DNA of 35,479 nt from a virus, in the UHGV virus genome UHGV-0144289. The stretch is one strand, 5' to 3'. Shown here piece after piece: positions 2,260 to 31,476 of this stretch (within the stretch, counting starts at the first letter, position 1; the number at the start of each line of letters is the position of its first letter). The notes beneath the pieces were generated by a model that worked only from the letters and a program-made list of their open reading frames with translations, did not search any database and was not told the origin of the DNA. The translations under genes and the position numbers were made by a program.

Positions 2260-2791
2260 GGTGAGCGCCCGGCACTGGGTTTAACAGTTCTTCCGGTATC
2301 TCTCCGCCGTCAGCGGTAATCTGGGCCGCCGCTGCCTGTGCTGATTCAATCGCTTCCTTGATGGCTTTCTTGTCCGGAGTGACTAACGTCTGAACTGTCA
2401 CTAATTCATCCGGCAGTAATTCATCATTATCGATCACGACGTTTATAGCTCCCTTACGTGCGGTAAAGGTATTTTTGGCGGTTTTAACCGTATCCTGACC
2501 GGCGGCCAGTAGACACTGGAGAACATATTTCTTCAGGTTCGTGATCTTACCTTCGAATGATTTTTTGCGGGCGGCAAGGCGTTTGGCCTCTTCATCGCAG
2601 GTTTTTGCCAGGCCTTCCAGATTGCGAACGTGGACGAAAACGGCATCCAGTTTATCGCCGAGTTGTAACTCAAGACCTTCCATTGTGTCGGCGATCATTT
2701 CAGGAGACAGACCAGCACCGTCTTCGTTTTCCAGTAGTGCCTGGAGTTTTGACATATCGGCTGCGATAGCAATTGCAGTGGTGGAAGTCAT
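2225..2791 (-). CDS. Siphovirus Gp157-family protein (commonly found next to phage recombinases)
   Basis: 188 aa; coiled-coil N-terminus and the pattern EEAKRLAARKKSFEGKITNLKKYVLQCL...TFTARKG...VIDNDELLPDEL, which resembles the Gp157 family as I recall it; immediately downstream of the annealing-protein gene. Confidence 0.5.
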   Translation of the reverse strand: MTSTTAIAIAADMSKLQALLENEDGAGLSPEMIADTMEGLELQLGDKLDAVFVHVRNLEGLAKTCDEEAKRLAARKKSFEGKITNLKKYVLQCLLAAGQDTVKTAKNTFTARKGAINVVIDNDELLPDELVTVQTLVTPDKKAIKEAIESAQAAAAQITADGGEIPEELLNPVPGAHLEIGERSLQVR

Positions 2792-4941: not shown

Positions 4942-4985
4942 TGGTCTTTCCTCTTGGTTACTGGCGCAGGTCACGCGCCGGTTAA

Positions 4986-9620: not shown

Positions 9621-9658
9621 CCGCGCCTGACCAGCGCGATTTAACTGAGGAAAGACCA

Positions 9659-10327
9659 ATGACCACGAATTTAAATTACCCAAAACCAGTAAAACCGGAT
9701 GATGGCTGCAACTGGCTCCCCGTTATTCTCTGGCGCATGAATGCCGGTGCGCGCGCCCGTAGCCGTTCCGTGTTCGTAGCGGCGCCACGTCCGGCCCCTG
9801 TACCAGGCATCACCCCGCAAAAACCGATTAAGCGAGAAATTATCGCCCCTACGGTTTCCGGCCGCAGGCGTAAAACCCACATCGGCACCGTGATTTATTC
9901 CAGAGGTGAAAAAAGCGTTCGCCTTAGCGAAGGCGCGACTGTCTGGTCTGCTGGCTCAAATGAGCATTTCGATAAAAAAACGGGCCAGCGCGTCGGCAGT
10001 ATTGGTCGTCACCGTCTGGTGCTGGAGAGTATCCGCCCATTGCAGGCCAGCGACGCACAACAGGACGCCGGGAGCGTCACCGCGCAGCAACTGGTAGCCG
10101 TGATGAAAGGCAAAACGCTTTCTTACCAGGGCATTCTGGCATTAATCCAGAAGCACTATCCCGATTGTCAGGTGACGACTAAAGAACTTCACGATCGCGT
10201 GTTCGGCATGTTCATGTCGAATTACGTGGGTATCACCCGTCACGACGATATGCCGGTGGTTCACTTCACGCTTAACAGCGTCGATCCCCGTTATTACATC
10301 GAGTCAGCGAAGAACAAGAGGGCATAA
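9659..10327 (+). CDS. Hypothetical protein (no recognised domain)
   Basis: 222 aa; ATG preceded by GAGGAAAGACCA and a conserved upstream block GCGCCTGACCAGCG. Confidence 0.6.
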   Translation: MTTNLNYPKPVKPDDGCNWLPVILWRMNAGARARSRSVFVAAPRPAPVPGITPQKPIKREIIAPTVSGRRRKTHIGTVIYSRGEKSVRLSEGATVWSAGSNEHFDKKTGQRVGSIGRHRLVLESIRPLQASDAQQDAGSVTAQQLVAVMKGKTLSYQGILALIQKHYPDCQVTTKELHDRVFGMFMSNYVGITRHDDMPVVHFTLNSVDPRYYIESAKNKRA

Positions 10328-15492: not shown

Positions 15493-17118
15493 ATGGATCA
15501 ACTCGCCAGCCGGTTAATCAGGCGCGCTGACACGCTGAAAGCAAATCGCCAGGTGCACGAAAGCGTCTGGCGGGAATGCTACGACTACACCTATCCGCTG
15601 CGCGGGGCCGGGTTTTCGTCTGAGGTGCTGGACGCACAGAGCGCAAAGCACAAGGTTGCGAAGCTGCTGGACGGCACAGCCACCGACAGCGCCCGTATGC
15701 TGGCGTCCGCGCTTATGTCAGGGATGACCCCGGCGAATGCTCAATGGCTGAACCTCGACAGCGAATTACTTCCTGATGACGCTAAGGCGTGGTTGTCCAC
15801 CTGTGCAACGCTGGTATGGGAAAATATCCACGCCGCTAACTTTGACGCGGAAGGGTACGAGGCCAATCTCGATGTGGTCTGTGCTGGCTGGTTCGCGCTG
15901 TACGTCGATGAGGACAAGGAAGAGGGAGGATTTACCTTCCAGCAGTGGCCGCTGGCGCAATGCTTTGTGACTTCCACCCGCCGGGATGGCATCGTGGACA
16001 CGATTTATCGGTGCTATCAGCTCACCGCTGAACAGGCAGTGAAAGAATTCGGCGCGGACAAGGTAAGCGAAAAAATCCGCGATGCTGCAAAAAACAAACC
16101 TGACGATAAATTTGATTTCCTGCACTGCATTTTCCCGCGTGATACCTACGCCGTAAATGCGAAGCTGGCGCGCAATATGCGTTTTGCATCGTTCAACGTG
16201 GAAGTGAACGGCAAGCGTATCGTGCGTGAATCCGGCTATCACGAATTCCCTGTGTGCGTCCCGCGCTGGATGAAAATTCCCGGCGGCTCCTACGGTATCG
16301 GCCCGGTATACGACGCGCTGCCGGACTGCAAAGAGCTGAACGAAACCAAACGCATGGAGAAGGCCGCGCAGGATCTGGCTATCTCCGGTATGTGGATTGC
16401 TGAGGATGACGGCGTGCTCAACCCGCGAACGGTAAAAGTTGGCCCGCGCCGCGTCATCGTGGCGAACAGCACCGAAAGCATGAAACCTTTGCTCACCGGC
16501 GCAGATTTCAACGTGGCGTTTACCGCTGAACAGCGCCTGCAGGCTTCCATTCGCAAAATCATGATGGCCGATCAGTTGCAACCGCAGGACGGCCCGGCAA
16601 TGACTGCTACCGAAGTGCATGTGCGTGTCGCGCTGATCCGCCAGTTGCTTGGCCCGGTCTATGGACGATTCCAGGCTGAATACCTGCAACCGCTGGTGGA
16701 GCGCTGCTTCGGTATTGCGTTCCGCGCTGGCGTTTTTCCTCCCGCTCCCGAGAGCCTCCAGAGCGCCAATTTCAACGTGCGTTATATCTCCCCGCTGGCC
16801 CGTGCGCAGAAGCTGGAAGATGTGACCGCCATCGAGCGATACGGCCAGAACATCATGCAGCTGGCGCAGGCGTACCCGGATGTACTGGACAACATGGACA
16901 GCGACGAGGCGAGCAAGGTTGTCGGCGAGGCTCTTGGCGTTCCGGCAAAAGTTATGCGTTCCGCTGATGCGGTCGAGCAACTTCGACAGCAGCGCCAGCA
17001 GATGCAACAGCAGCAGGCGCAACAGCAGTTGCTGATGCAGGCCGGGACGGAAGCCGCCGGCGCAGCAGGGCAGGCAGCAGGCGCAATTATGGGACAACGA
17101 CTGGCGGGCAACCAATGA
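15493..17118 (+). CDS. Portal (head-to-tail connector) protein, T7 gp8-like
   Basis: 541 aa; size, position at the head of the structural module and Gln-rich C-terminal tail (QQRQQMQQQQAQQQLLMQAG) resemble the T7 gp8 connector. Confidence 0.75.
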   Translation: MDQLASRLIRRADTLKANRQVHESVWRECYDYTYPLRGAGFSSEVLDAQSAKHKVAKLLDGTATDSARMLASALMSGMTPANAQWLNLDSELLPDDAKAWLSTCATLVWENIHAANFDAEGYEANLDVVCAGWFALYVDEDKEEGGFTFQQWPLAQCFVTSTRRDGIVDTIYRCYQLTAEQAVKEFGADKVSEKIRDAAKNKPDDKFDFLHCIFPRDTYAVNAKLARNMRFASFNVEVNGKRIVRESGYHEFPVCVPRWMKIPGGSYGIGPVYDALPDCKELNETKRMEKAAQDLAISGMWIAEDDGVLNPRTVKVGPRRVIVANSTESMKPLLTGADFNVAFTAEQRLQASIRKIMMADQLQPQDGPAMTATEVHVRVALIRQLLGPVYGRFQAEYLQPLVERCFGIAFRAGVFPPAPESLQSANFNVRYISPLARAQKLEDVTAIERYGQNIMQLAQAYPDVLDNMDSDEASKVVGEALGVPAKVMRSADAVEQLRQQRQQMQQQQAQQQLLMQAGTEAAGAAGQAAGAIMGQRLAGNQ

Positions 17119-17348
17119 TCAAAAAAGACGTAACCCCTGAAGACTACCGGCGCATTTTCGAGGAGATGCCCGGCGGGCCGCAGGTGCTGGACGAATTAAC
17201 GCGCCGCTTCGGGCGTGAGGCGTATGTCAAAGGCGGTACCGAAGGCGACCGGGAAACCTGTTACCGGGCCGGACAGCGTTCCGTGCTCGATTTCATTCTG
17301 ATGCAAATCAACAAAGCAGACGGAGTAAACGACGATGTGGAAGTTTAA
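17115..17348 (+). CDS. Hypothetical small protein between portal and scaffold
   Basis: 77-aa ORF, start overlaps the portal stop (ATGA). Confidence 0.5.
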   Translation: MIKKDVTPEDYRRIFEEMPGGPQVLDELTRRFGREAYVKGGTEGDRETCYRAGQRSVLDFILMQINKADGVNDDVEV

Positions 17349-18183
17349 ACACTTATTCATGAACACCGAAACAGGTGCAGAAGCGCCAGCGGGTAACGCA
17401 GGAGGGGATGATGCTGGTAATAGCGATGGTACTCAAAATCCGGGCGGCGGTACTCCTGCTGGTACTTCGCTACTCAGCACCGGCGCGGGCGAACAAGGCG
17501 CGGATGACTGGCTACCTGAAAAATACCGCGTTATGGGCGATGACGGAAAACTCAACGTTGAAGGCTCAGCCCGCAAACTGGCGGATGCTTACACGCACCT
17601 TGAAAAGCGCATGGGCAGCGGCGACACGCCGCCGAAAACGGCTGATGAGTATGCGCCAAAGGTAGAGGTCGAGGGTTTTAAGTGGGACGAATTCAAAGCC
17701 GACCCGCGCATGCAATCCTTCATGAAATCGGCTCATGCCAAAGGCATCACCAACGATCAGATGGGTTTCATCCTGGGCGAATATGCACAGCTGGCCCCCG
17801 AACTGGTTAACGGTGCTGCGGCGCTGGATTCGGAAGCCGCCGCCACGCAGCTGCGCGAGACGTGGAAAACTGACGCCGAGTTTAATAAAAACATCGGTCT
17901 GGCTTTCCGGGCATTTAACTCTCTGGCAGATGACGGCGACAAAGGGCGCATGGATGAAATCGGCAATAACCCGATGGTGATCCGCATGCTGGCGAAAATC
18001 GGCGCTGAAATGCAGGAGGATGCGCCGGCGGGCGGCGATGTGAATCTCGAAGAACAGCAATCAATCCGTGACCTGATGAAGTCCCCGGCCTACATGGATC
18101 CTAAACACGCCGACCATGAGAACGTTTCCGCCCGGGTTCGCGCGTACTACCAGAAGCGTTACGGTGATCAAACTGTAGCGTGA
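17335..18183 (+). CDS. Scaffolding protein (T7 gp9-like)
   Basis: 282 aa, acidic, Ala/Gly-rich, predicted helical; located between portal and major capsid genes. Confidence 0.6.
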   Translation: MWKFKHLFMNTETGAEAPAGNAGGDDAGNSDGTQNPGGGTPAGTSLLSTGAGEQGADDWLPEKYRVMGDDGKLNVEGSARKLADAYTHLEKRMGSGDTPPKTADEYAPKVEVEGFKWDEFKADPRMQSFMKSAHAKGITNDQMGFILGEYAQLAPELVNGAAALDSEAAATQLRETWKTDAEFNKNIGLAFRAFNSLADDGDKGRMDEIGNNPMVIRMLAKIGAEMQEDAPAGGDVNLEEQQSIRDLMKSPAYMDPKHADHENVSARVRAYYQKRYGDQTVA

Positions 18184-18216: not shown

Positions 18217-18633
18217 ATGAGCGACAAAGATATCGAGCAGCAAATTCAGGCTAAAGGCTTAACCGCGCCGCGCGTTACGCCTGATCATATCGAGAGCGTT
18301 ATCAAAGAGTGCCATTATCTCAACGTCGGCGAAGCGGTTCAGGCGGGCTGGCCTGATAAGTCGGCAATGGACGATTGCAGCCCAGCGCTGAACCTGCTGA
18401 CGATTTGTGTTCTGGTGCTGCACAACGGCTTCACCGTCACGGGCGAAAGCGCCTGCGCCAGCCCGCAAAACTTCGACCCGGAGATCGGTCGCAAGATTGC
18501 CCGCGAGAATGCGGTTAACAAGATTTGGATGCTGGAAGGTTACCTGCTGAAACAAAAGCTCAGTGAGCAGTGTACCGATGAGCGCATGTGTGAAAACTGC
18601 TACTCCGGCCAGGGCGCCTGTAATAACAAGTAA
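18217..18633 (+). CDS. Hypothetical protein with Cys-rich C-terminus
   Basis: 138 aa; ATG preceded by GAGGAAAGACCA; C-terminal CTDERMCENCYSGQGACNNK. Confidence 0.55.
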   Translation: MSDKDIEQQIQAKGLTAPRVTPDHIESVIKECHYLNVGEAVQAGWPDKSAMDDCSPALNLLTICVLVLHNGFTVTGESACASPQNFDPEIGRKIARENAVNKIWMLEGYLLKQKLSEQCTDERMCENCYSGQGACNNK

Positions 18634-18656
18634 CACCGTGACCAGTCACAACCAGA

Positions 18657-18683
18657 AGCCAGCCTAACCCGCTGGCTTTTTTA
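18657..18683 (+). terminator. Intrinsic terminator upstream of the capsid gene
   Basis: Hairpin AGCCAGC-CTAACCC-GCTGGCT followed by TTTTTTA. Confidence 0.65.
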
Positions 18684-18702: not shown

Positions 18703-18852
18703 GCGCACCTCGATAACAATCACTCCATAACCAGCCCGGCGGGGACGCCGGATACCTGATTTCTCCCGCAATGCGCCAGCGCCAACCGCATTGTGCAGAT
18801 TTGGGCCGGGAAACCGACACCCCGCAGGCGATTTTTTACTGGAGTGATTTTT

Positions 18853-19758
18853 ATGTCATTTGATGCAAACAAGAACATGATCACCGCTGCGTTTGTTACG
18901 CAGTTTCATGATTCTTTCGAAATTGCTGCACAGCAAAAGGATTCGCGCCTGCAAGCGGCTGTCCATGACCGTGGCAGCATCACCGGTGCGTCGTTCACCA
19001 TCAACGATATGGGTACCATTGAGATGAACCAGATCACCACGCGTTTCGGTGATACCGTCTGGGATGTTCCGGAAGCCGGTACCCGTAATGCGCTGATGGC
19101 CGACTACGGCGTTTTCGTCCCGGTCGAGAAACGCGACCTGCGCAAGCTGATTGCCGACCCGCAGGGGCCGTATTTGCAGCTCACCCTGTCCGCCGCCAAC
19201 CGCAAAAAAGACGATGTAATTTACCGCGCGCTGCTCGATGCGGTACTGCGTAAGACTGAGAACAACGGCGCGTATGCATCCGTTACCCTCCCGGCCTCGC
19301 AGAAAATCGTTGCTGGCGGTACTGGCATGACCAAAGCCAAACTGATCGCAGCAAAAGCGATGTTCCGCCGTAACGAATGTGACGAGCAGAACGGCGAAGA
19401 GCTGTACATGACGTACAACGCCGACATGCTGACGCAGATCCTCAGCGATACCACGCTGACCAGCGCCGACTTTATGGCGGTGAAAATGCTTCAGGAAGGT
19501 TCGGTGTCGTCTAAATGGCTGGGCTTTAACTGGCTGGCATACGAGAAGCTGGATTCTGCCACTGCCGAAAACGTCACCACCAAAACCGCCGCCGCCTGGT
19601 GTAAGTCCGCTGTGCATTTCGGTACCGGCGCTGAGTACAACGTCGATATCGGCCCGCGTCGCGATAAAAATAACACCATCCAGATTTCCGTTGATGCGTC
19701 CTATGGCGCTGGCCGCGCCAACGAGAAAAAAGTCGTTGCCATCGATTTTGTAGCATAA
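18853..19758 (+). CDS. Major capsid protein
   Basis: 301 aa from the ATG at 18853; follows the scaffold gene, has a long structured 5' leader and is followed by a terminator, as is typical for highly expressed capsid genes. Confidence 0.65.
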   Translation: MSFDANKNMITAAFVTQFHDSFEIAAQQKDSRLQAAVHDRGSITGASFTINDMGTIEMNQITTRFGDTVWDVPEAGTRNALMADYGVFVPVEKRDLRKLIADPQGPYLQLTLSAANRKKDDVIYRALLDAVLRKTENNGAYASVTLPASQKIVAGGTGMTKAKLIAAKAMFRRNECDEQNGEELYMTYNADMLTQILSDTTLTSADFMAVKMLQEGSVSSKWLGFNWLAYEKLDSATAENVTTKTAAAWCKSAVHFGTGAEYNVDIGPRRDKNNTIQISVDASYGAGRANEKKVVAIDFVA

Positions 19759-19817: not shown

Positions 19818-20381
19818 ATGGCTTCCAGTATCTCTATCTGTTCTAACGTACTGCTGGCGCTCGGCGCTCATCCCATTAACAGCTTCGACGAAGCGACCGA
19901 ACACGCCCGCCTGTGCTCCAATATTTACCCTACCGTACGCAATGACCTGCTGCGAAAACATCCATGGAACTGCGCGGTAAAACGCGTCGTGCTCTCACCG
20001 TCCAGCACCGCGCCCGCGTTTGGTTTCGGCTACCAGTTCCCGCTGCCGGGCGATTTAATCCGGATCCTGTCCGTTGGCCGTGAGTATGAGGATATCGGGT
20101 ACCGCGTTGAAGGAAACCGCCTGCTGGCGAATCAGAACGTAATTTATCTGCGCTACCTGTTTCGTAACGAGGATGAATCGACGTGGGATTCGTCGCTGGT
20201 CAATCTGGCCGAAGCGTTCATGGCCGCAAAGCTGGCGTACGCCGTCACCGGCTCCGCGAGTCTGCGCGACAGTCTGACGCAGGAAGCTGCATTCCTTCTT
20301 CGCCAGGCCAAATCTATCGACGGACAGGAAGAACCGCCGGAAACGCTGGACGGCTATCCAACTTATGAATCGAGGTTCTGA
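19818..20381 (+). CDS. Tail tubular protein A-like (T7 gp11-like)
   Basis: 187 aa; size and position after the capsid gene match T7 gp11. Confidence 0.5.
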   Translation: MASSISICSNVLLALGAHPINSFDEATEHARLCSNIYPTVRNDLLRKHPWNCAVKRVVLSPSSTAPAFGFGYQFPLPGDLIRILSVGREYEDIGYRVEGNRLLANQNVIYLRYLFRNEDESTWDSSLVNLAEAFMAAKLAYAVTGSASLRDSLTQEAAFLLRQAKSIDGQEEPPETLDGYPTYESRF

Positions 20382-22372
20382 TGCGCGCGAACCTAATAAA
20401 AACCAATTTTACCGCGGGTGAAATTTCCCCGCGCCTGATGGGGCGTGTTGATATCGCCCGCTATGCCAACGGTGCAAAAATTATCGAAAACGCGGTGTGC
20501 GTGGTGCAGGGCGGTGTCGTTCGCCGACCGGGTACGCGCTTTGCCGCTGCCGCTAAATATGGTGACCGGACAGCACGACTGATCCCCTACGTCTTTAACC
20601 GCTCGCAGGCGTACATGCTCGAATTTGGCGACGGGTATCTGCGCATCTACCAGAACGGCCGGCAGCTGGTAAACGACGATAATACCCCGTATGAAATCGC
20701 CAGCCCGTACACCGTCGATATGTTGTCTGAGGTGAATTACGTGCAGGGCGCTGACACGATGTTTTTAGTGCACCAGAGCGTCCCGCCGCACCGCTTGCAG
20801 CGTAAGGGGCAAACTGATTGGGTACTGGAAGCCGCGCCGTTTATCGTGGAACCATTCGACGAAATCCGCGACACGCCGGAGAAATGGTGTAAGCCATCGG
20901 TTAAAGAATTCGTCGGCTCAGAAATCACGCTGACGCTCAGTGATGCCGAACCCGCAGATGATGACGATTCCCCCGCGTTTACTGGTACCGGCTGGATATC
21001 GGAGGACGTTGGTTCGTACGTTCGCATTAACAGCGGTCTGGTGCTAATTAAGAGCATCACCAGCGCGCAGATTGCTGTCGGCACCATCCGCACCGATTTA
21101 AGCGCAACGCAGGCGGCATCCCCCGGAGCCTGGACACGTGAAGATACTGTCTGGACGGAGGAATTTGGCTACCCCGGCGCGGTGACGCTGTACCAGCAGC
21201 GGCTGGTTCTGGCTGGTTCCCCGCAGTACCCGCAAACAATCTGGTGGAGCGAAACCGGCGTTTACCTGTCGTTTGAGCTGGGAACGGACGACGACGACGC
21301 GATCAGCTTTACGCTGTCTTCTGACCAGTTAAACCCGATCGTGCATCTGGCGCAGATGAATACGCTTATCGCGCTGACGTACGGCGGCGAGTTTACAATC
21401 ACTGCCGGCAGCGACGCGGCGATCACCCCGACCAATATTTCGGTAAAAAATCCCAGCCCGTACGGCTGCAACAGCATTCGCCCGGTTCGTGTCGGTACCG
21501 AAATTATGTTTATCCAGCGTGCCGGGAAAAAACTGTATGCCGTGGCGTATGACCCCGACAGCTACGTTTCGTATTCCGCCAATGATTTAACGGTGCTGGC
21601 CGAACACATCACGGCCGGCGGCGTCCTCGATATGGCGTATCAGCAACAGCCTGATGCGTTCGTGTGGCTGATCCGCGCCGATGGCGTACTGGTGACGATG
21701 GGTATCGACCGGGCGCAGGATGTAGTCGCATGGTCACGCCAGATCACCGATGGCGTTTTTGAATCGGTGGCGAGTATTCCCTCGGAAAGCGACGACGTGA
21801 TTTATGTTCTGGTGCGCCGGGAAGTTAACGGCCAGACCGTTCGTTATGTTGAAGTATTCGACAGCAACCTGAATACCGATTCCGCAGTAACCGGCTCCAG
21901 TTCAGAAGGTGCCACCACGTGGACAGGTCTTTCTCACCTCAATGGAAAAACGGTTGATGTGGTGGCCGATGGTTCCGTGATGCCGCAGGCAACGGTAACA
22001 GACGGGCAAATCACTCTCAGCCGCAAAGCGAAAAAAATCGAAGTAGGCCTGCATTACGAAACCACCATCCAGACGCTGACGCCGGAAATCTCAACGACCG
22101 AAGGCACCACGCAGAACGCCCGCAAGCGTACCAGCGAAGTCACGCTCCGCTTTATGGAAACCACTGGCGCGGAGTGCAACGGTCAGGTGATCCCCTTCCG
22201 TACCTTCGGCCCAAAAATCCTTAACCAGCCCGCGCCACTTTTCACCGGTGATCATTATTTCGGGAAACTTGGCTGGGAGCGCGGGGAAGACACTTTGATT
22301 ATTCAGCAACGCCAGCCGCTGCCGTTTCATCTGCTGGCGATTATTTTCACGTTCTCCAGCAACGGGGGCTAA
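20381..22372 (+). CDS. Tail tubular protein B-like (T7 gp12-like)
   Basis: 663 aa; size and position match T7 gp12; start overlaps the previous stop. Confidence 0.5.
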   Translation: MRANLIKTNFTAGEISPRLMGRVDIARYANGAKIIENAVCVVQGGVVRRPGTRFAAAAKYGDRTARLIPYVFNRSQAYMLEFGDGYLRIYQNGRQLVNDDNTPYEIASPYTVDMLSEVNYVQGADTMFLVHQSVPPHRLQRKGQTDWVLEAAPFIVEPFDEIRDTPEKWCKPSVKEFVGSEITLTLSDAEPADDDDSPAFTGTGWISEDVGSYVRINSGLVLIKSITSAQIAVGTIRTDLSATQAASPGAWTREDTVWTEEFGYPGAVTLYQQRLVLAGSPQYPQTIWWSETGVYLSFELGTDDDDAISFTLSSDQLNPIVHLAQMNTLIALTYGGEFTITAGSDAAITPTNISVKNPSPYGCNSIRPVRVGTEIMFIQRAGKKLYAVAYDPDSYVSYSANDLTVLAEHITAGGVLDMAYQQQPDAFVWLIRADGVLVTMGIDRAQDVVAWSRQITDGVFESVASIPSESDDVIYVLVRREVNGQTVRYVEVFDSNLNTDSAVTGSSSEGATTWTGLSHLNGKTVDVVADGSVMPQATVTDGQITLSRKAKKIEVGLHYETTIQTLTPEISTTEGTTQNARKRTSEVTLRFMETTGAECNGQVIPFRTFGPKILNQPAPLFTGDHYFGKLGWERGEDTLIIQQRQPLPFHLLAIIFTFSSNGG

Positions 22373-22824
22373 TGATGATCCGTAATGCAACCGCCGGTGA
22401 TATTCCGGCGCTTATCGAACTGGGAACCCGGATGTACCTGGAATCCCGCTATTCCGAAAACTCACCCTTTGACGCGGACAAATGCGCGGAACTGGCTGAG
22501 AGCCTGATTTATTCCCCCGCCGGATGCGTGCTGGTGGCAGAGAAAAACGGCCTGGTGATTGGCTGGCTCGGCGGCGGCATCGCGGAGCAGTTTTTTTCCC
22601 GCCAGTTGATGGCGTTTGAATATGGCCTGTTCGTCGCTCCGGAGTACCGGGGCGGCAGCGCGGGCCCACGGCTGGCCCGTGCATTTATCGAATGGTCGAA
22701 AGAACACGGCGCCGCAGTGATCAACATGGGGATCACCACGGGCGTCCATGCCGAACGTACTGGCCAGCTTTATTCCCGCCTCGGTCTGCAACGTACCGGG
22801 CTGCTTTATTCGATGGAGGTTTAA
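22372..22824 (+). CDS. GNAT-family N-acetyltransferase
   Basis: 150 aa; acetyl-CoA binding motif region LFVAPEYRGGSAGPRLARAFIEW; embedded between tail and internal virion protein genes. Confidence 0.7.
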   Translation: MMIRNATAGDIPALIELGTRMYLESRYSENSPFDADKCAELAESLIYSPAGCVLVAEKNGLVIGWLGGGIAEQFFSRQLMAFEYGLFVAPEYRGGSAGPRLARAFIEWSKEHGAAVINMGITTGVHAERTGQLYSRLGLQRTGLLYSMEV

Positions 22825-22826
22825 CG

Positions 22827-23315
22827 ATGTGTACAGGTGTTGAAATCGCACTGGTGGCTTCTTCGGTTCTCGCTGCTGGCGGGGCAGTGGCCAGCGGCCA
22901 GCAGCAAAAGAAAATGGCGAACTATCAGGCCGCGCAGGCTGAAGCCGACGCCGAAGCATCAAAAGCAGCGGCAAAAGTTGAAGCGGAGCGTATTCGTAAA
23001 GCCGGTCGCCAGCAGGCATCTGCCGCCAATGCTGCGTTGGCAGCTTCAGGCGTTGAGACGGGAGAGGGAACGGCGCTCCGTGTCACGTCAGGTATTGCAG
23101 GGGATGCGGAGCAGGACGCCTATCAGACAATCCTTAATGGCGTGAATTCTTCTAATCGCCTGCAGGCGCAGGCACAAGCCGACAGGATCAGCGGCAGTAA
23201 TGCGGCGACAGCGGGGAATATTAGTGCTGGCAGTTCATTACTTAGTGCTGGCGGAACTGCATACAGCGGCTGGAAAAAAGCAAAAACAGGCAAATACGGT
23301 TTATATGCGGAGTAA
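22827..23315 (+). CDS. Internal virion protein (T7 gp14-like)
   Basis: 162 aa; hydrophobic N-terminus, Ala/Gln-rich; shares motifs with the 73-aa protein at 15268. Confidence 0.5.
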   Translation: MCTGVEIALVASSVLAAGGAVASGQQQKKMANYQAAQAEADAEASKAAAKVEAERIRKAGRQQASAANAALAASGVETGEGTALRVTSGIAGDAEQDAYQTILNGVNSSNRLQAQAQADRISGSNAATAGNISAGSSLLSAGGTAYSGWKKAKTGKYGLYAE

Positions 23316-23320
23316 GTGAC

Positions 23321-26032
23321 GTGAGAATTCCAACGGGTAATTTTGGTAATGTGACACCGCAGGCACAGCAGACGCGTGTCGCTGTTAGCAATGTAGGCAC
23401 TATAGGCAATGCGGTGTCTGGTTTTGGGACCGCTACAGGGCAGGTAGCAGAACAAGTACAGCATGAGCAGGATAAAGCCGATGTGGCAGCCACGCAGGCG
23501 ATTCTGACTGATCTGGAAGCTAAATCTAATGACCGCTGGGAAAACCCGGAGACGGGCGCCACGGTCACTCGTCAGGGCTTTAAATCGTCCGGTGTGGTAA
23601 CCGATATGGATAAGGCCGACGCTGGCGATTACGAGGAAGCGCGGAAGCGCGTACCGCCCAACCAGTTAAACTATTTTGATGCGCAGTGGAAAGCAGGGCA
23701 GGTACGCCGGACAAGTACCTACAGCGGTTTCGAGCGTGCACAGACGGATGAGGCCCAGCGGCAGCAGCTTAATGCGACGGTGACCACTTCCGTCGAACAA
23801 GAGGCCAGCGCATACGATAATCCGATGCAGGCAGGGCTGATACGTAGCGCCCGTAAACACTCGATCGAGATGTATGGCCAGGCGCGTGGCTGGCCGCAGG
23901 AGCGCATCGACGCGGCGGTATCAGAAGCGAACCAAAAAGCGCTGGAGCAGCGCGCGCAGAACTACGCGGTAACCAATCCCACTGGCTGGCTGAATGGCGA
24001 TTTTACGTTGATTAACAGCAGCACCGGCGAACTCGATATGCGCGCCGTTGGCCTGGTGGAGTCCGGTGGTAAGCACCGCAATGCGGATGGTAGTCTTGTT
24101 ACATCGCCCGCTGGCGCGCAGGGTGAATTTCAGTTGATGCCGGACACAGGGAAAGAACTGGCGGCTAAACGTGGCGTGGAATACAACCCGGACGATCCTG
24201 TGCAGCATGCGCAGCTGGCGCGTGATTATGCCGGGCAGCTCAGTAAAAAATACCAGTCAGAACCACTGGCCGGGGCCGCGTATAACTGGGGGATGGGTAA
24301 CGTCGATAAACTGATCGCCAAAGTGGGCGACCCGCGCAAAGGCGAAATCTCGATGGCGGATTTCGTTAAGCAGCTACCCGCAGAAACGCGCGGTTGGTTG
24401 TCCCGCTACAACAAAAATAAAACCGGTCTCGACCCGGTAGCAGTAAACAAAATCGACAATATCGCCGAAGCGCAGATCCGGCAGCAGCGTACGGCGCTGC
24501 GCCAGCAGATTGACCCGATTCTCAATAATACAATGGCGCAGCTGTATAACGGCGAGGTGCCGGATGCTATGCCGAACGCCTCCACCATTTTGTTTGCGTA
24601 TGGTGAGCAGGGGCAAACAGCGGTCAAGCAGCTGGATATCGCGATTGATAACGCCAGAACCTTCCAGGCTATTCAGTACGCCACCCCGGCAGAACAGCAG
24701 GCCGAACTGGCGAAGGTGAAGCCGCAGGCAAACGATCCCGATTTTGCGCTAAAACTTGATGCACACGGCAAACTTAGCGCGCTGGTGCAGAAGAGCAACG
24801 CCAATATTCAGGCGCAGCGCGACTCCGCCCGCTTTAACGATGCGCTGCTCTCCGGCGAGAAACTCGACCCGAGCAATAAATCTATGCAGAGGGCGGCGGA
24901 CAATACGCCATCGGCGCTTAATTTCCGCATTAACGATGCAACCACCCACGATGCTATCGTACAGCAGGTAAACCAGACCGGCATTGTTCCGTCGCAGGTA
25001 ACATCACAGCTCAATGCTATTTCCCGCTCCAGTAGCTCAGATGTAGTGAAGCAAGGCGCTGAAATATTCAATAGGCTTTACGACTCTAAATCTTCTAACG
25101 TCAGTGATATGCCAAAAGATATACAAAGTTTTTATCTGACAATTAAGCAATTGACCGAAGCTGGTATGGCTTCTGATGAGGCAGTGAAACAGGCACAGAA
25201 TATAACCTATAACCAGAACGATGCATTAAAAAATCAGTTAACTTCGACGCAGAGCACTAAAGAATATAAAAGCGAGCGAGATAGTGCTATGGATTCAGCT
25301 CGAAATAGTATGGCTCAGTGGTTCAGAATTGATCCAAAGGCAAGCGATACAACAACTGATGCAGTTAATTTTCGAAATGACTACCAGTCCCTTTACGATA
25401 TCAACTATCGAAATTCTGGTGGGAATTCTGAAATTGCCAAAAAAATGACCAACACTCAAATCTCTCGTAACTGGAGCATTAGCGAAGTGAACGGCAAGGC
25501 CCAGTTCATGAAATATGCACCAGAAGCACTATATAACTTTGGTCCGTCAGGTTGGCAGGCTGAACTGTGGAAAGAAAAAAAAGAGGAACTAATGTATGGC
25601 GAGCGTAATGAGGAGATCTCTACCAGCCCAACGCAGTTAGGAATCACGTCAGGAACTGCAACAAATATTATCTCAAACACCCCCGAGTCTAAAGTTGGTG
25701 GTGAATTGGAAATTGTGCCTGATGTATATACTCCAAGAATTAAAGATTATGCAATTTGGATTCGCTTTAAGGATAAAGATGGTAATGAAAAGGCACAGCC
25801 TTATAACGACAAATTTGGTAGGCAAATGCGGTGGAGGCCATCCCTAGAGGAATGGGGGCCTTACCAGAAAATGCAGAAGGAACGAGAGCAGAAAGAACAG
25901 GATGAAATTTCGCGCGGAAAAGATATTCGCGGATTTAAAGCGAAACATCGAGCATTGGATGAGCAGTACCAGCGTTTGCATGATGAGCGACTTGAACGTA
26001 CGAAAAATTATTTTTCATGGAGTAATGAATAA
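23321..26032 (+). CDS. Internal virion / ejection protein with lytic transglycosylase domain
   Basis: 903 aa; transglycosylase-like motif GLVESGGKHRNADGSLVTSPAGAQGEFQLMPDTG around nt 24050-24180, as in the N-terminal domain of T7 gp16. Confidence 0.65.
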   Translation: MRIPTGNFGNVTPQAQQTRVAVSNVGTIGNAVSGFGTATGQVAEQVQHEQDKADVAATQAILTDLEAKSNDRWENPETGATVTRQGFKSSGVVTDMDKADAGDYEEARKRVPPNQLNYFDAQWKAGQVRRTSTYSGFERAQTDEAQRQQLNATVTTSVEQEASAYDNPMQAGLIRSARKHSIEMYGQARGWPQERIDAAVSEANQKALEQRAQNYAVTNPTGWLNGDFTLINSSTGELDMRAVGLVESGGKHRNADGSLVTSPAGAQGEFQLMPDTGKELAAKRGVEYNPDDPVQHAQLARDYAGQLSKKYQSEPLAGAAYNWGMGNVDKLIAKVGDPRKGEISMADFVKQLPAETRGWLSRYNKNKTGLDPVAVNKIDNIAEAQIRQQRTALRQQIDPILNNTMAQLYNGEVPDAMPNASTILFAYGEQGQTAVKQLDIAIDNARTFQAIQYATPAEQQAELAKVKPQANDPDFALKLDAHGKLSALVQKSNANIQAQRDSARFNDALLSGEKLDPSNKSMQRAADNTPSALNFRINDATTHDAIVQQVNQTGIVPSQVTSQLNAISRSSSSDVVKQGAEIFNRLYDSKSSNVSDMPKDIQSFYLTIKQLTEAGMASDEAVKQAQNITYNQNDALKNQLTSTQSTKEYKSERDSAMDSARNSMAQWFRIDPKASDTTTDAVNFRNDYQSLYDINYRNSGGNSEIAKKMTNTQISRNWSISEVNGKAQFMKYAPEALYNFGPSGWQAELWKEKKEELMYGERNEEISTSPTQLGITSGTATNIISNTPESKVGGELEIVPDVYTPRIKDYAIWIRFKDKDGNEKAQPYNDKFGRQMRWRPSLEEWGPYQKMQKEREQKEQDEISRGKDIRGFKAKHRALDEQYQRLHDERLERTKNYFSWSNE

Positions 26033-28935
26033 TGCCAATTTACCCCACACCCAGCGAATTCAGTAATGGTTATATACCTGCTGGTAGCGCCCTGGATGCC
26101 CCAGTAGGGTTCGATATTGATTTACCTGAAGGTGCAAACCCGGAACCTCAACCGCCACAACCGTCCGTATGGAGCGCTGCATTCCGACAGAATAACCTAC
26201 TAGCAGGGATTTTTCGGCCTGCAAAACAATTTGAACCGGCTGAAGGGTATAACCCTTACGCTGATAAGAATGAAATTCACGGCTATGAGCAATGGGGATC
26301 TGCTTTCGCAGATTCTCAGTCACCAGAAGAAACAGCCTGGATTAAAAACCAGATTGACGATGAAAACGAAGACCGCCGTGTACTGTCCGAGGCTGGCACA
26401 GAGGGAACTTTAGCCAGTATCGCTGCTGGGGCTATCGATCCTGTCACGGTGGCTTCGATGTTCATCCCCGGCGCCCAGGGAACTCTGGTTGCGCGCATTG
26501 GTTCGCAGGTTGCTATCGGTGCTGCTGGTACCGCGCTTAGCGAGGTTGTGCTCAACAACGAACAGTATACCAGAACAGCCAGGGAGAGTGCCGCGCATAT
26601 CACAGCCGGCGCACTTCTCAGCGGTGTATTTGCTACTGCTGGCGCTATGATCACCCCATCGGTAAGAAATGCGGCAACCCGGGAAGTAGCCGAGGCGCTC
26701 GATAATATGAATGCCTCGCCAACGATTAATAACGCAGCCGACGCCCTGGCGGATACTTTACCGAACGGTGGCAGCGTCGGCGCTATGCGTATTCGCGAGG
26801 CGACGCTGGAAGACCTCACGCCAGTGTCCGGCGGCCCGCTCGGCAAGCTGGCTAAAAAGGCCGGTAGCTATCTGACGCCGATCACCCGCCTGATGGAATC
26901 CCCATCAAAAGAAGCGCGCCGGACAGCGCTGGAGCTGGCGGAGAATAACTTCACGCTGGAAGGCAACCTGCGCGGTATCGAAACTCCGGTAGCTGCCGAG
27001 ACGCGCGTACGTGGCTGGCGCCGCGAAGAGGCGGCCGTCGTTACTGCTAATAAGCAGGCATACACCCAGTATAAAGCCGAGGGCGGCGATCTGGGTTATA
27101 CGGCCTTCCGTGAACAGGTTGGTGAGGCGCTGCGTAACGGCGACGTGCACGTTAATGCGAAAGTGCAGGAAGCGGCGCAGGCAATGCGTACGGTCATTAA
27201 CCGCGTGAAGACAGCCCAGCAGGAACTGGGCTTACTCCCGCCGGATGCCGAATTGAAAGCGATGGGGCAGACCAGCTATTTCCCGCGCGTGTACAAGGTG
27301 GGGAAAATCGTTAGCGAGCGCGATAAATTCCGCAATATGCTGGTTGACTGGTGGTCACGCGGTGAGAAAACCATGTCCCGCGAAGATGCCGAAATCGCCG
27401 CCGATACCACTATTAACCGTATTGTCGGGGCCAAAATTCCGCAGGAGTTCGCCAACGTCTTTATGGTGAAAGCGCCGGGTAGCACTAAATCGCGTACGTT
27501 GAGTGTTCCCGATCGTCTGATGAAAGACTATCTGGAGAGCGATGCAAATTACGTCCTGCAGCGTCATATCCGCGAAGCCTCAGCGGAGATCGAATTAACC
27601 CGCACCTTTGGCAACAAATCGCTGGATTCGCAGCTTGCCGCCATCCAGGACGAATACGACGCGCTGATGCGTTTACGCCCGGCAGAACAGGAAAAGCTGG
27701 CGAAGGCGCGCGAAGCCGACCTGCGCGATATTCTGGCGCTCCGCGATCGCCTCGTTGGAACCTACGGTATGCCGGATGATCCATCATCATTTTTCGTTCG
27801 CGCCGGTGCTTTCCTGCGTAGTGCCAACTTTGTAACGAAACTCGGTGGCATGACGGTATCCGCTATTCCGGATCTGGCGCGCGGCATGATGGTTAACGGC
27901 TTCAGCAATACCATGCGTGGATATGGCGCGCTGATCACTCGATCACCGGCTTACCTCGCCAGCCGGGCGGAGCAGAAGAAAATGGCTGTAGGGCTGGAAA
28001 CTATTCTTCAAACCCGCTCGCGTACGATGGGCGATCTGGTGGATAGCTCTTCGCGCACCACTGCGATCGAAGCGGGCATGGAGCGCATTACCGATGTGTT
28101 CGGCAAGCTGACCATGATGGGCCACTTTGACGACATGAACAAATCGGTAAATGGCATGATTACTTCAGACGGTATTTTGTCAGGTGCGTTCCCGGCGAAA
28201 CGTCTGGCTAAGCTCGGCATCAATGACAAAATGGCCGAACGCATCCAGAAAGAGTTTCAGAAGCACGGCGAAGTCATTCAGGGCTGGCATATCGGCAATT
28301 TCGAAAAATGGGATGACCAGTACGCCGCCGGCTTGCTGCAATCTGCGGTACTGAAAGACGTAAACAATACCGTTATCACGCCGGGTATCGGTGATACGCC
28401 GCTATGGGCCAGTACCCCGCTGGGGAAAACTGTATTCCAGTTTAAGTCTTTTGCTACGGCATCCTATAACCGCGCGACGCTCGGTGGCCTGCAGGAAGGT
28501 ACCGCGCAATTCTATTACGGTACCGCCTTCCAGATTGGCCTGGGCTCATTGACCTATGCGCTTAAGCAGGCGGCTAACGGTCGCGAGGTTGATTTGACGC
28601 CGCAGAAGATGGTACTAGAGGGTATCGACCGTTCGGGTATCCTCGGCCCGCTGATGGAATACAACAACATGGCGGAAAAGGCATCTGGCGGCATGATAGG
28701 ACTTGGGCCATTGCTCGGCACCGGTACGCAATCCCGTTATGCCAGCCGCGGCTTTATCGGTTCTGCTCTGGGGCCAACCTTTGGCCTGCTGGATACTGTA
28801 ACCGATGTGACCGCTGGCGTGCTGAATGGCGACGCTGGAGACCGGGTCCTGCATAGCGCGCGAACGCTGTTACCGGGCAATAACCTGTTCTGGATCGCGC
28901 CGCTGATTAACCAGGTCGATCCCGGTATGCGTTGA
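26032..28935 (+). CDS. Large internal virion / DNA ejection protein
   Basis: 967 aa; position and size consistent with T7 gp15/gp16-type core proteins. Confidence 0.55.
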   Translation: MPIYPTPSEFSNGYIPAGSALDAPVGFDIDLPEGANPEPQPPQPSVWSAAFRQNNLLAGIFRPAKQFEPAEGYNPYADKNEIHGYEQWGSAFADSQSPEETAWIKNQIDDENEDRRVLSEAGTEGTLASIAAGAIDPVTVASMFIPGAQGTLVARIGSQVAIGAAGTALSEVVLNNEQYTRTARESAAHITAGALLSGVFATAGAMITPSVRNAATREVAEALDNMNASPTINNAADALADTLPNGGSVGAMRIREATLEDLTPVSGGPLGKLAKKAGSYLTPITRLMESPSKEARRTALELAENNFTLEGNLRGIETPVAAETRVRGWRREEAAVVTANKQAYTQYKAEGGDLGYTAFREQVGEALRNGDVHVNAKVQEAAQAMRTVINRVKTAQQELGLLPPDAELKAMGQTSYFPRVYKVGKIVSERDKFRNMLVDWWSRGEKTMSREDAEIAADTTINRIVGAKIPQEFANVFMVKAPGSTKSRTLSVPDRLMKDYLESDANYVLQRHIREASAEIELTRTFGNKSLDSQLAAIQDEYDALMRLRPAEQEKLAKAREADLRDILALRDRLVGTYGMPDDPSSFFVRAGAFLRSANFVTKLGGMTVSAIPDLARGMMVNGFSNTMRGYGALITRSPAYLASRAEQKKMAVGLETILQTRSRTMGDLVDSSSRTTAIEAGMERITDVFGKLTMMGHFDDMNKSVNGMITSDGILSGAFPAKRLAKLGINDKMAERIQKEFQKHGEVIQGWHIGNFEKWDDQYAAGLLQSAVLKDVNNTVITPGIGDTPLWASTPLGKTVFQFKSFATASYNRATLGGLQEGTAQFYYGTAFQIGLGSLTYALKQAANGREVDLTPQKMVLEGIDRSGILGPLMEYNNMAEKASGGMIGLGPLLGTGTQSRYASRGFIGSALGPTFGLLDTVTDVTAGVLNGDAGDRVLHSARTLLPGNNLFWIAPLINQVDPGMR

Positions 28936-28939
28936 TAGC

Positions 28940-29374
28940 CTAGTTACACGAACTAACAGTAACTGCATTGAAGAATGTTCCGGAGGGGTAGGTGTAAACA
29001 TATTGCATCTCCCCACCTAATCTAATGAATGAACCCAGTGGATTTTTATTCGTGCATAACCCATTTTTTGTTATTTCATCCATTCGAGATTTAGCAACGT
29101 CGATTGAAGTATGGGTCTCTGAAGCGGTAGCCAGCATTTCTTCTTCGGTTACGCCTAGCCTTACCTGCGCGATTATTTTGTTTCCATCAGCAGAAACATC
29201 TTTCATTATTACGTTTTCTGATAACGTTAAGGGCAGTCTGGGGCGTACCTGAGTGACGATTTTCTGAGCCTGTTCGCATACATCAAACTCAGTTAAGTTT
29301 GGTTTACACTTATCTGCTGCGAATGCCGGATGTGAGATCATTACTAATATCGAAATTAGACCAATTTTTTTCAT
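28940..29374 (-). CDS. Secreted protein of unknown function (moron, opposite strand)
   Basis: 144 aa; N-terminal signal peptide MKKIGLISILVMISHPAFA-AD; four Cys in the mature part; AT-rich; has its own A/T-rich promoter region at 29375-29460. Confidence 0.7.
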   Translation of the reverse strand: MKKIGLISILVMISHPAFAADKCKPNLTEFDVCEQAQKIVTQVRPRLPLTLSENVIMKDVSADGNKIIAQVRLGVTEEEMLATASETHTSIDVAKSRMDEITKNGLCTNKNPLGSFIRLGGEMQYVYTYPSGTFFNAVTVSSCN

Positions 29375-29527: not shown

Positions 29528-29869
29528 ATGCATTCAGATTACAAAACTCGCCTTACTGCTCTTAGCGATAAGCTCACCGACGTAGTTCTGGAAGAAGCCG
29601 ATCCGGATAACTGGCCGGGGGCAGGGAAGGAAATCACAAAGCACACTAAACAGGAACGCGGTGATCGGTACTGGCATAAGAAGAACGCGGCCGCATCGCT
29701 GACGCTGCTGGTAAAAGTCCATTCGCTGATTGGCATGCATACGCGCGGGGGGACGCCTAAACCCGGCGAGGATCCGGACGATGAAGCATTCCGCCTGGGG
29801 CAACAGGTATCTGCGGCTGAACGGGCAGCACAGGAAGTTATCGAACGCATACAACAGCGGAAAAAATGA
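29528..29869 (+). CDS. Putative terminase small subunit
   Basis: 113 aa; immediately upstream of and overlapping the large-subunit gene by 4 nt; assignment by position only. Confidence 0.4.
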   Translation: MHSDYKTRLTALSDKLTDVVLEEADPDNWPGAGKEITKHTKQERGDRYWHKKNAAASLTLLVKVHSLIGMHTRGGTPKPGEDPDDEAFRLGQQVSAAERAAQEVIERIQQRKK

Positions 29870-31476
29870 TTTCATTCGTCGCCTTTTTCATCATATGGGC
29901 GGAGCGGATGGGGTGGGAGGTTCCCGACTGCCATTATCGAGCCTGCCACTGGTTGGAACACCGCGGGGATCTCGCGGTGCTTCGCTGTTTTCGTGGCTTT
30001 GGTAAATCTACCATTCTGGCGGTGTATAACGCATGGCGATATTACCAGAACCGCCAGTACCGCATTCTTCACCAGTCTGAAGCTGACGGCACCGCGTACA
30101 AAACCAGCCGCGATACGCAGAACGTTTTACGCAATCACCCACTGACCAAAGGCATGCTACCGGACGGACAGGGAACCGTTGAACAGTGGTGGGTTAACGG
30201 CTCTCTGGATATGCGTAACGGCAGCATGTACGCAAAGGGGATCCTCTCTAACGTTACCTCGGCCCGCGCTGATGAATGCCAGAACGATGACGTAGAAGTA
30301 CCCCGCAATATCCAGACGCCAGAGGCGCGGGAAAAGCTGCGTTATCGTCTCGGTGAACAGACACACATTCTTGTCCCCGGCGGGCGAAAGCTGTTTATCG
30401 GCACGCCGCATACCCACGATAGCCTTTACGATGAGGTTGAATCTATGGGCGCCGACTGTCTGACCATCAAACTATTCGGTAAAGAATTTAGAATCGAGGA
30501 AAAACAGGCCACTGCGAGCCGTTACTCGTTACCGTTCCGGCCGGAATATGTTTTCGTCGGTATTCACATTGGCGCGCGACTGCTCGTTGAAGGTGTTGAT
30601 TATCGTCTTAACGATGACGGTATCGAGTTTGCCGAGGCTCCCGGCACCACGGTTGACTGTTACGCCGATTGTGAATGGCCAGAAAGGTTCACTCCGGAGG
30701 AAATGACAAAGCGCCGTCGCGAGACTCGCACAATTAACGAATGGGACAGCCAGTACCAGCTGCACAGTAAACCGGTTGGCGAGGTTCGTCTCGATCCCGA
30801 CCGCATACGCGAATACAACGTACAGCCTGAAATCCGGTACGCGAACCGCTCCTGCTCGATGTGGCTTGGCCAGACGCAAATTGTTGGTGCTGTTGCCTGG
30901 TGGGATGTGGCCACCGGCAAAGTTAAGGCCGACGCCTCGGCGTTCTCTCTGATTTTCACCGACGCACGCGGGCATCTGTACTGGCATGTTTGCCAGGGGC
31001 TTACGGGCGAACTGGCGGAATTCGACGACAACGACAAAATCACCGGCGGTCAGGTGATGCAGATTAAAGAGCTGGTGCTTAAATACCAGATCCCGCTGGT
31101 CTGCGTCGAGGTGAACGGCCCGGGCAGCTTTGCCGGGAAATTGCTGATTCAGGCACTAAAGGGTACCGGCTGCGGCGTACGGGAAGAATTCAGCGTGACC
31201 AATAAACAAAAGCGCATCCTCGATGCATTCGAAGCGCCGCTGTCGTCGCGCTTCCTCTGGGCGCATACCGACGTGCTCGACGGCCCAATGTATGACCAGA
31301 TGCGCGACTTTAACCCGGCGCTGACTAATCAGCCAGATGACTTTATCGACTCTGGCTCTGGCGCAATCAGCTCAACACCAGTGCGCATTGGTAAATTGGT
31401 CGGGATTCCGACCGCACAGGCGCGGGAACATTGGCAACCAAATGATGGCGATCACATGGTCGCCGTAGATTACTAG
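29866..31476 (+). CDS. Terminase large subunit (T7 gp19-like)
   Basis: 536 aa; Walker A-like FRGFGKST in the N-terminal ATPase domain, acidic catalytic residues downstream; size matches T7-type terminases. Confidence 0.8.
   Translation: MISFVAFFIIWAERMGWEVPDCHYRACHWLEHRGDLAVLRCFRGFGKSTILAVYNAWRYYQNRQYRILHQSEADGTAYKTSRDTQNVLRNHPLTKGMLPDGQGTVEQWWVNGSLDMRNGSMYAKGILSNVTSARADECQNDDVEVPRNIQTPEAREKLRYRLGEQTHILVPGGRKLFIGTPHTHDSLYDEVESMGADCLTIKLFGKEFRIEEKQATASRYSLPFRPEYVFVGIHIGARLLVEGVDYRLNDDGIEFAEAPGTTVDCYADCEWPERFTPEEMTKRRRETRTINEWDSQYQLHSKPVGEVRLDPDRIREYNVQPEIRYANRSCSMWLGQTQIVGAVAWWDVATGKVKADASAFSLIFTDARGHLYWHVCQGLTGELAEFDDNDKITGGQVMQIKELVLKYQIPLVCVEVNGPGSFAGKLLIQALKGTGCGVREEFSVTNKQKRILDAFEAPLSSRFLWAHTDVLDGPMYDQMRDFNPALTNQPDDFIDSGSGAISSTPVRIGKLVGIPTAQAREHWQPNDGDHMVAVDY
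31398..31413. repeat. Late-region hairpin motif GGTCGGGATTCCGACC, copy 3 (inside the 3' end of the terminase gene)
   Basis: Part of an identical 20-mer shared with 18685-18704; ~80 nt upstream of the tail-fibre start. Confidence 0.8.

Follow-up and report, generated by a model that had tools for sequence, protein, structure and literature searches.

The window analysed here, the 35,479-nucleotide (nt) viral sequence UHGV-0144289, carries on its forward strand, at 22372..22824, an intact open reading frame (ORF) for a GNAT-fold protein of 150 amino acids (aa), lying between the gene for the tail nozzle (tubular tail B) and the gene for a small ejection protein resembling T7 gp14, internal virion protein B (IVP-B). 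A tRNA cluster directly adjoining a tyrosine integrase gene shows the window to be a temperate podophage that has integrated next to a tRNA-Leu gene. We propose that the GNAT is the IVP-A-type morphogenesis factor of this prophage, the counterpart of T7 gene 13 and P22 gene 14, and that it would act by acetyl transfer, an interpretation whose chances we judge to be about even. The protein is an ordinary member of the large podophage-specific family PHROG 1249, which is already in the literature, as is its placement (since 2016), and we file it there as a positional and structural counterpart of T7 gp13 and not as a member of the gp13 family.

The protein scored well above the Pfam gathering threshold for PF00583 Acetyltransf_1 (43.7 bits, cut-off 20.7, E=3.8e-11), passed PF13508 Acetyltransf_7 too (32.9, cut-off 27) and matched PHROG 1249 'acetyltransferase' over its full length (E=1.4e-47; its residues 1-149 cover positions 8-156 of the 180 in the profile); GNAT families were the only ones matched in the Pfam and PHROG searches. 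The same PHROG is matched by the proteins of Yersinia phage YeP5, Alcaligenes phage Piluca and phage SP6 (gp28). The ORF is far beyond chance: the exact protein is present in 137 blocks of the assembly collection, some on contigs longer than 1 Mb, annotated Klebsiella homologues reach 96-97% identity, more distant ones are known from Citrobacter, Enterobacter, Serratia, Yersinia, Pectobacterium and Dickeya, and 1333 cluster representatives (at 50% identity), nearly all of 148-152 aa, are found at E<=1e-10. A sequence-only reading of this stretch had described a co-oriented 150-aa GNAT between tail-tubular B and the internal core proteins, and the ORF, PF00583, phrog_1249 and the neighbour annotations all agree with it. 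It had also proposed a structural comparison with known acetyltransferases. The AlphaFold2 model built from an alignment of 134 diverse homologues reached a pLDDT of 97.8 and has the GNAT topology, with strands (E) and helices (H) at E2-5, H8-24, H26-29, H35-47, E51-58, E61-72, E79-88, H97-111, E114-117 and H127-136, in the expected order beta1-alpha1-alpha2-beta2-beta3-beta4-alpha3-beta5-alpha4-(beta6); DSSP assigns no strand in the 14 residues past alpha4 of the monomer model. A Foldseek search of the PDB gave 661 matches at E<=1e-3, of which 50 were listed, nearly all of them annotated or putative acetyltransferases. Enzymes of the AAC(3)-I type, DpA (which acetylates polyamines), AAC(6')-Iy and RimI are the best of those listed, that is, aminoglycoside, polyamine and protein acetyltransferases, at 13-22% identity and with TM-scores of 0.7-0.85 to cellular minimal GNATs (about 0.75 for the RimI entry 7n1l). 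Sequence-profile matches of the family in the PDB reached E=1.6e-11, with 4h89, 2ge3, 3f8k and 1yvo among them.

Conservation was counted over 134 representatives that are 33-81% identical to the window protein. In the pyrophosphate loop at the beta4-alpha3 junction, R93 is kept in all 134, G94 in 119 (89%) and an alanine or glycine at position 98 in 118 (88%). The loop of the window protein, R93-G-G-S-A-G98, follows the family pattern R-G-[GS]-x-x-[AG] and contains Motif A (R/Q-x-x-G-x-G/A), its glycine register being off by one from the textbook form. An acidic residue at position 83 on beta4, glutamate in the window protein, is found in 131 of the 134 (98%), and Y134, within the alpha4 motif L-Y-x-x-L-G, in 101 (75%). 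The acetyl-CoA-binding residues, whose loss on alignment would have counted against the sequence-only reading, are kept, and the best-conserved positions of the family are those expected of an active GNAT. A further, family-specific pair closes alpha1 (E24, 127/134; S25, 122/134), and two residues ahead of it, at position 22 (codon 22435-22437), histidine is present in 106 of the representatives and tyrosine in the window protein and its close Klebsiella and Citrobacter relatives. In GNATs, that stretch is usually part of the lining of the acceptor site. As the acetyl-CoA loop, the beta4 acidic residue and the alpha4 tyrosine are all kept, the window GNAT probably binds acetyl-CoA and transfers the acetyl group.

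By analogy, the working unit seems to be a dimer. This is suggested by the C-terminal 14 residues devoid of a strand, by the presence of AAC(6')-Iy and Hpa2, which form strand-exchanged dimers, among the best TM-scores of the PDB matches listed, by tandem GNAT genes (150 and 152 aa) that fill the tail B/IVP-B slot in another lineage, at L011:4220-5127 and L012:3231-4138, and by fused double-GNAT proteins of 318-371 aa (P0278, P0292 and P0327). One of the fused proteins is encoded next to a giant cadherin-repeat protein.

The GNAT gene is preceded by those of a 187-aa tubular tail A-like tail protein (19818..20381, forward strand; phrog_394, E=3.3e-60) and the 663-aa nozzle (20381..22372, forward strand; PF25675 Phage_nozzle, E=2.7e-8; phrog_376, E=1.3e-220), and is followed by that of the 162-aa IVP-B (22827..23315, forward strand; phrog_418, E=1.5e-41, and a weak match to PF24072 T7_gp14). 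Megablast of positions 20000-24000 against the phage collection gave zero matches, and the relatives came from tblastn. The order tail A, tail B, GNAT, IVP-B is found in the nearest sequenced phages, Yersinia YeP4, YeP5 and YeP6 (GNAT 65% identical), and tail B-GNAT-IVP-B is found in Piluca (32%), Acinetobacter phage TPWB-05 (34%), Celeribacter phage P12053L and the metagenomic contig L015 (35%). The location had been called unusual for an enzyme; it is not, because the same gene order recurs across distant podophages, down to 32-35% identity. It is the slot of T7 gene 13, with the nozzle, GNAT and gp14-like genes of the window standing where T7 has genes 12, 13 and 14. The placement of GNAT-fold proteins in this slot was explained by Hardies et al. 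2016 (PMC4819975), and the same equivalence was drawn for the SIO1 GNAT (pc40) in the cobavirus paper (PMC6775973).

The GNAT has diverged about as much as its structural neighbours in each comparison. Identities to YeP5 are 65% for the GNAT, 63% for the scaffold, 70% for tail A, 77% for the nozzle and 81% for IVP-B; those to Piluca are 32% (GNAT), 29% (nozzle) and 28% (IVP-B), and those to L015 are 35, 38 and 39% in the same order. The tail A-like gene is 44-70% identical to the syntenic genes of YeP5, Piluca, TPWB-05 and L015. The GC content of the GNAT gene is 0.58, against 0.55-0.59 in its neighbours, and promoter- or terminator-like sites flanking it were not found. With a fixed slot, neighbour-like divergence, matching GC and no promoter or terminator of its own, the GNAT gene behaves like a core component of the tail/ejection module that is inherited vertically, and not like cargo. 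A second placement, at the head of the structural block, is seen in SP6 (gp28), Aeromonas phage MJG and Pseudomonas phage Njord, where the GNAT is followed by one small ORF and the portal; in SP6 the gene for tail B and that for IVP-B adjoin directly, with nothing between them. For the phiKMV-like phage JG068, an HHpred table likewise has a GNAT entry, gp29, whose place is just upstream of the portal (PMC3765740). The 244 phage records with a tblastn match are all roughly 27-58 kb in length and mostly podophages, and the PHROG 1249 GNAT seems close to being a hallmark of the structural modules of podophages, in one copy and at either of the two positions.

The junctions of the gene are tight. 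At the upstream one (22364..22377, forward strand), a GGGGG stretch (22364-22368) precedes the nozzle stop TAA (22370-22372), the last nucleotide of which is the first of the GNAT start codon ATG (22372-22374), as read directly in the TAATG at 22370-22374. A second in-frame ATG at 22375 makes a double start, ATGATG (22372-22377). Since most homologues open with M-I-R and position 1 is often gapped (78 of the 134), the true start may be 22375, which would give a protein of 149 aa; close relatives annotated at NCBI are 149 aa long. The stop/start overlap formerly described for this gene therefore stands, as a single nucleotide, if translation begins at 22372, and becomes a 2-nt gap if it begins at 22375; the coupling is tight in either case, and the close packing of the genes around the GNAT is unaffected by the choice. 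At the downstream junction, the start region of IVP-B (22815..22829, forward strand) has its ribosome-binding site, GGAGG (22815-22819), within the 3' end of the GNAT gene, whose TAA (22822-22824) is separated by 2 nt from the IVP-B ATG at 22827.

In the passage of PMC4819975 that cites Kemp 2005, T7 gp13 is given as needed for the morphogenesis of infectious particles and as not retained in virions; the slot counterparts of the phiRIO-1 group are described as non-structural (PMC4819975). We modelled T7 gp13 through a 97%-identical representative and a 27-sequence alignment, and the model (pLDDT 93.7) has a GNAT-like fold with the full beta1-alpha1-alpha2-beta2-beta3-beta4-alpha3-beta5-alpha4-beta6-beta7. 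From position and from the analogy of fold with T7 gp13, we infer a morphogenetic role for the window protein. In the mechanism that we propose, the GNAT would be made late, on one transcript with the tail tube, nozzle and ejection proteins, and would act in the cytoplasm during particle assembly, probably without being carried in the finished virion. Probably as a dimer, it would transfer an acetyl group to a phage protein, the likely targets being its gp14-like neighbour IVP-B and/or small ejected proteins, and would so render the ejection apparatus competent for assembly and ejection; particles formed without it would be expected to infect poorly. Modification of a virion component is the most plausible chemistry among the alternatives that the sequence-only reading had offered.

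IVP-B is the obvious candidate target of acetylation. Its Met-Cys N-terminus (22827-22832) is common to T7 gp14 and the IVP-B proteins of YeP5, Piluca, TPWB-05 and L015, and Met-Cys starts were located at L004:3729, L002:7456, L009:5456 and L015:6455. The IVP-B of P12053L and SP6 gp35 start with Met-Ala, and others with MG or MI. The conserved Cys2 is accompanied by neither a signal peptide nor a lipobox, and it could be a modification site; we take the Met-Cys terminus as a lead only. A bolder version of the proposal, in which the active GNAT modifies the ejection apparatus, most likely at the exposed N-terminus of IVP-B, and thereby makes the particles infectious, T7 gp13 being a degenerate descendant that works by binding or as a chaperone, seems to us rather improbable. 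If it were true, it would amount to a previously undescribed covalent maturation step of podophage ejection proteins.

Several points weigh against the proposal of an acetylating IVP-A factor. Homology with T7 gp13 or P22 gp14 could not be demonstrated by sequence: BLASTP of the window GNAT gave E=9.8 with T7 gp13 and was non-significant with P22 gp14 too; hhalign aligned only 12-15 N-terminal columns, the beta1 motif, with T7 gp13 (15 columns, E=1.1e-4 and probability 56% when the 134-sequence alignment was used); against P22 gp14 it gave E=0.09 (75 columns) and, with the 134-sequence alignment, 0.17 (87 columns), with probabilities below 1%. Therefore, the link rests on position and fold, and the GNAT is a very common fold. 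The SP6-type site lies at the boundary between the replication and structural regions and is less diagnostic of a morphogenetic role. The contribution of the slot to morphogenesis is achievable without catalysis; as T7 gp13 has lost the motifs, the function of the slot may be non-catalytic, which weakens the idea of an acetylated virion protein. An acetylated ejection protein was not reported in the literature searched.

The window protein has no sequence match to PF11090/phrog_308 or to DUF2824, three shallow profile-profile comparisons with T7 gp13 and P22 gp14 gave nothing significant, and the top 50 matches of Foldseek against BFVD contain other phage GNATs only, T7 gp13 and P22 gp14 being absent. 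No solved relative turned up when the PDB was searched by sequence with the profiles of gp13 and gp14; the best non-artefactual match of P22 gp14 was a faint one to the acetyltransferase PseH (E=0.17), and its 'Cake/Scone' matches, designed repeat proteins aligned on a 34-residue low-complexity stretch, were discarded as artefacts. In the literature on gp13, gp14 and IVP-A GNATs, we found no demonstrated biochemical function beyond positional and HHpred statements. Two apparent hits were set aside: the protein in PMC11482910 is gp130, and the 'gp14' of the Sf6 paper is the tailspike.

Three other explanations were considered, which we take in the order of their plausibility. The first, unlikely in our judgement, is that the GNAT merely travels with the late operon and is an acetyltransferase directed at the host or at a metabolite, with a host protein (takeover or anti-defence), polyamines (tuning how DNA condenses during packaging) or a compound resembling an antibiotic as its substrate. 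The intact catalytic signature would suit such an enzyme, the nearest solved structures are those of small-molecule and protein acetyltransferases (AAC(3)-I, AAC(6')-Iy, DpA and RimI), and the SP6-like gene is at the end of a DNA-metabolism block. Several papers assign GNATs of this kind in phages to metabolism or host takeover (PMC6918029; PMC10504331), and the phage GNATs Rac and Qst act on host targets according to the part of PMC10504331 that cites them. However, the solved enzymes are no more than 13-22% identical to the window protein, and every NCBIfam equivalog cut-off tested was widely missed: AAC_3_I scored 16.8 bits against 200, AAC_6p_group_E 16.7 against 140 and the RimI model TIGR01575 19.6 against 86.4, the likeness to RimI being structural only, and the scores for phosphinothricin-resistance and polyamine acetyltransferases were also far under the curated cut-offs. 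A component of a defence system was rejected with zero PADLOC families at E<=0.01, a result that is weak evidence on anti-defence, since PADLOC covers defence and not anti-defence. Fixed position and neighbour-like divergence across very distant phages are unlike accessory cargo, and the accessory and anti-defence cargo of this lineage (e.g., a Tad2-like gene) is in another, variable slot. Late expression, co-translational with the tail genes, would be badly timed for takeover if the protein is not packaged, and its T7 counterpart is not, in the passage cited above. The packaged or early-acting host effector, or anti-defence protein, envisaged in the sequence-only reading found no positive support in the PADLOC search, in the gene's GC, flanks and divergence, none of which is moron-like, or in the T7 and phiRIO-1-group counterparts.

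The second explanation, also unlikely, keeps the IVP-A role and dispenses with catalysis: the GNAT fold would serve as a chaperone or scaffold for ejection or small head proteins, acetyl-CoA being structural at most. T7 gp13 speaks for it, as a GNAT-fold protein that lacks a conserved loop and tyrosine even among sequences at least 56% identical and is yet required for morphogenesis (in the part of PMC4819975 that cites Kemp 2005). So do phiRIO-1, PA11 and CW02, in which an unrelated small protein fills the slot (PMC4819975), so that chemistry is not obligatory for the function of the slot. But in the window family the acetyl-CoA and catalytic residues are the most conserved of all among the 134 representatives, which is hard to explain without a ligand or catalysis; the occupants of the slot span from a canonical GNAT, as in the window, to a probable pseudo-enzyme, as in T7. 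The third explanation, that the GNAT is the toxin in a toxin-antitoxin pair, or else a recently inserted resistance or moron gene, could appeal to the small stand-alone GNATs that are toxins of the TacT/AtaT type (the TacT/AtaT/ItaT group) or AAC resistance enzymes and to the structural matches with AAC enzymes, but it is very improbable and effectively refuted by synteny and curated thresholds: no small antitoxin gene is adjacent, gene neighbourhood being the criterion applied to the toxin modules (the flanking genes encode the nozzle, of 663 aa, and IVP-B, of 162 aa, at junctions of 1 and 2 nt), the scores are far under the resistance-family cut-offs, the same slot is occupied in relatives at 32-65% identity, and GC equals that of the flanks, which, together with synteny and the absence of an own promoter or terminator, rules out a moron.

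The cluster of tRNA-Gly(GCC), tRNA-Cys(GCA) and tRNA-Leu(TAA) genes (151-452) is followed by the tyrosine integrase (583-1599, reverse strand), and a gene for a DnaB-type helicase lies beyond the integrase. In the early region are a 727-aa protein (2791-4974, reverse strand) with neither Pfam nor PADLOC match, after which comes, on the same strand, a Sipho_Gp157-family gene (2225-2791), and a 330-aa protein (7243-8235, forward strand) with no Pfam match. The structural block comprises the portal (15493-17118), a scaffold-like gene (17335-18183), a 138-aa PF13876 (Phage_gp49_66)/phrog_322 gene (18217-18633, forward strand) with a strong terminator-like hairpin after it (18654-18680), and the capsid (18793-19758). 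Downstream of IVP-B are an ejection protein of 903 aa that carries a lytic transglycosylase (SLT) domain (23321..26032, forward strand; PF01464, E=1.2e-9; phrog_1044) and a 967-aa IVP-D-like large ejection protein (26032..28935, forward strand; phrog_342 'internal virion protein with endolysin domain', E=2.7e-194). These two are only 31% and 22% identical to those of YeP5, over short stretches, amid flanking genes at 65-87%, and GC falls to 0.40-0.44 at 25100-26000, the C-terminal part of the SLT protein; the GC dip and the low identity between conserved flanks suggest that the large ejection proteins were swapped by mosaic exchange. The T7-type terminase (29866-31476) and the T7-type tail fibre/spike (31494-34013) come last. 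A 144-aa ORF (28940-29374, reverse strand) that separates the last of the ejection genes from the terminase block has a GC of about 0.39 against about 0.56 around it and zero matches in Pfam, NCBIfam and PADLOC; in a sibling prophage it is replaced by a different, forward-strand 108-aa gene, and it is likely a moron expressed in lysogeny. The slot between scaffold and capsid is variable as well, since a sibling with an identical GNAT (L019:5194-6266) adds there a 54-aa gene and a 166-aa Tad2-like gene, the latter of PF11195, an anti-Thoeris family. Cargo of this prophage lineage is placed there, away from the GNAT slot.

Genes such as this one are routinely misread as auxiliary metabolic, host-takeover or resistance genes by automated annotation and also in several papers (PMC6918029, PMC10504331), and we consider that GNATs in the IVP-A position are better treated as parts of the virion-assembly module. 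Members of PHROG 1249 would also be a better entry point to the substrate of IVP-A than T7 gp13, because the catalytic signature is full in the former and the latter looks pseudo-enzymatic. If the substrate proves to be an ejection protein, podophage assembly would gain a covalent maturation step.

Compared with cellular minimal GNATs (AAC(3)-I, AAC(6')-Iy, DpA, RimI, the phosphinothricin acetyltransferases and 4j3g), the window protein has the fold and the architecture of the cofactor site in common, whereas the cellular enzymes are encoded in resistance cassettes or in ribosomal and metabolic loci and the window GNAT in a virion-assembly operon. Among phage proteins, Pfam and PHROGs keep three families separate, PF00583/phrog_1249, PF11090/phrog_308 and PF11039/phrog_651, the last two being presumably placed by Pfam in the acetyltransferase clan. 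T7 gp13 (PF11090, phrog_308) differs from the window GNAT in several respects. Its model has beta6 and beta7, unlike the window model, where a strand is lacking after alpha4; its family (27 sequences, at least 56% identical) has not kept the loop (R70 in 14 of the 27, G73 and A75 in 5 each) and has an invariant F111 where the window family has the alpha4 tyrosine. T7 gp13 is thus probably a pseudo-enzyme, judging from these residues. P22 gp14 (DUF2824, PF11039, phrog_651 'head morphogenesis') is 151 aa long, similar in size to the window GNAT, and its gene (8911-9366) is directly upstream of gene 7 (9369-10058), which encodes the IVP-B homologue, just as the GNAT precedes IVP-B; the gene upstream of gene 14 is, however, that of the tail needle (gene 26) and not of a nozzle. 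It keeps the arginine at the beta4-alpha3 junction in 13 of 13 sequences, the glycine in 10 and the tyrosine in 12, and its R-G and Y-x-x-x-G-L align in register with the window family, in an alignment that is statistically non-significant. Closest of all is the podophage family of PHROG 1249 itself (SIO1 pc40, SP6 gp28, K1E gp27), with which the window copy shares the size of about 150 aa and the same motifs. The copy described here sits in a temperate Enterobacterales prophage next to tRNA-Leu, and between tail B and IVP-B where the SP6-type orthologue is upstream of the portal, but nothing essential separates it from the rest of that family.

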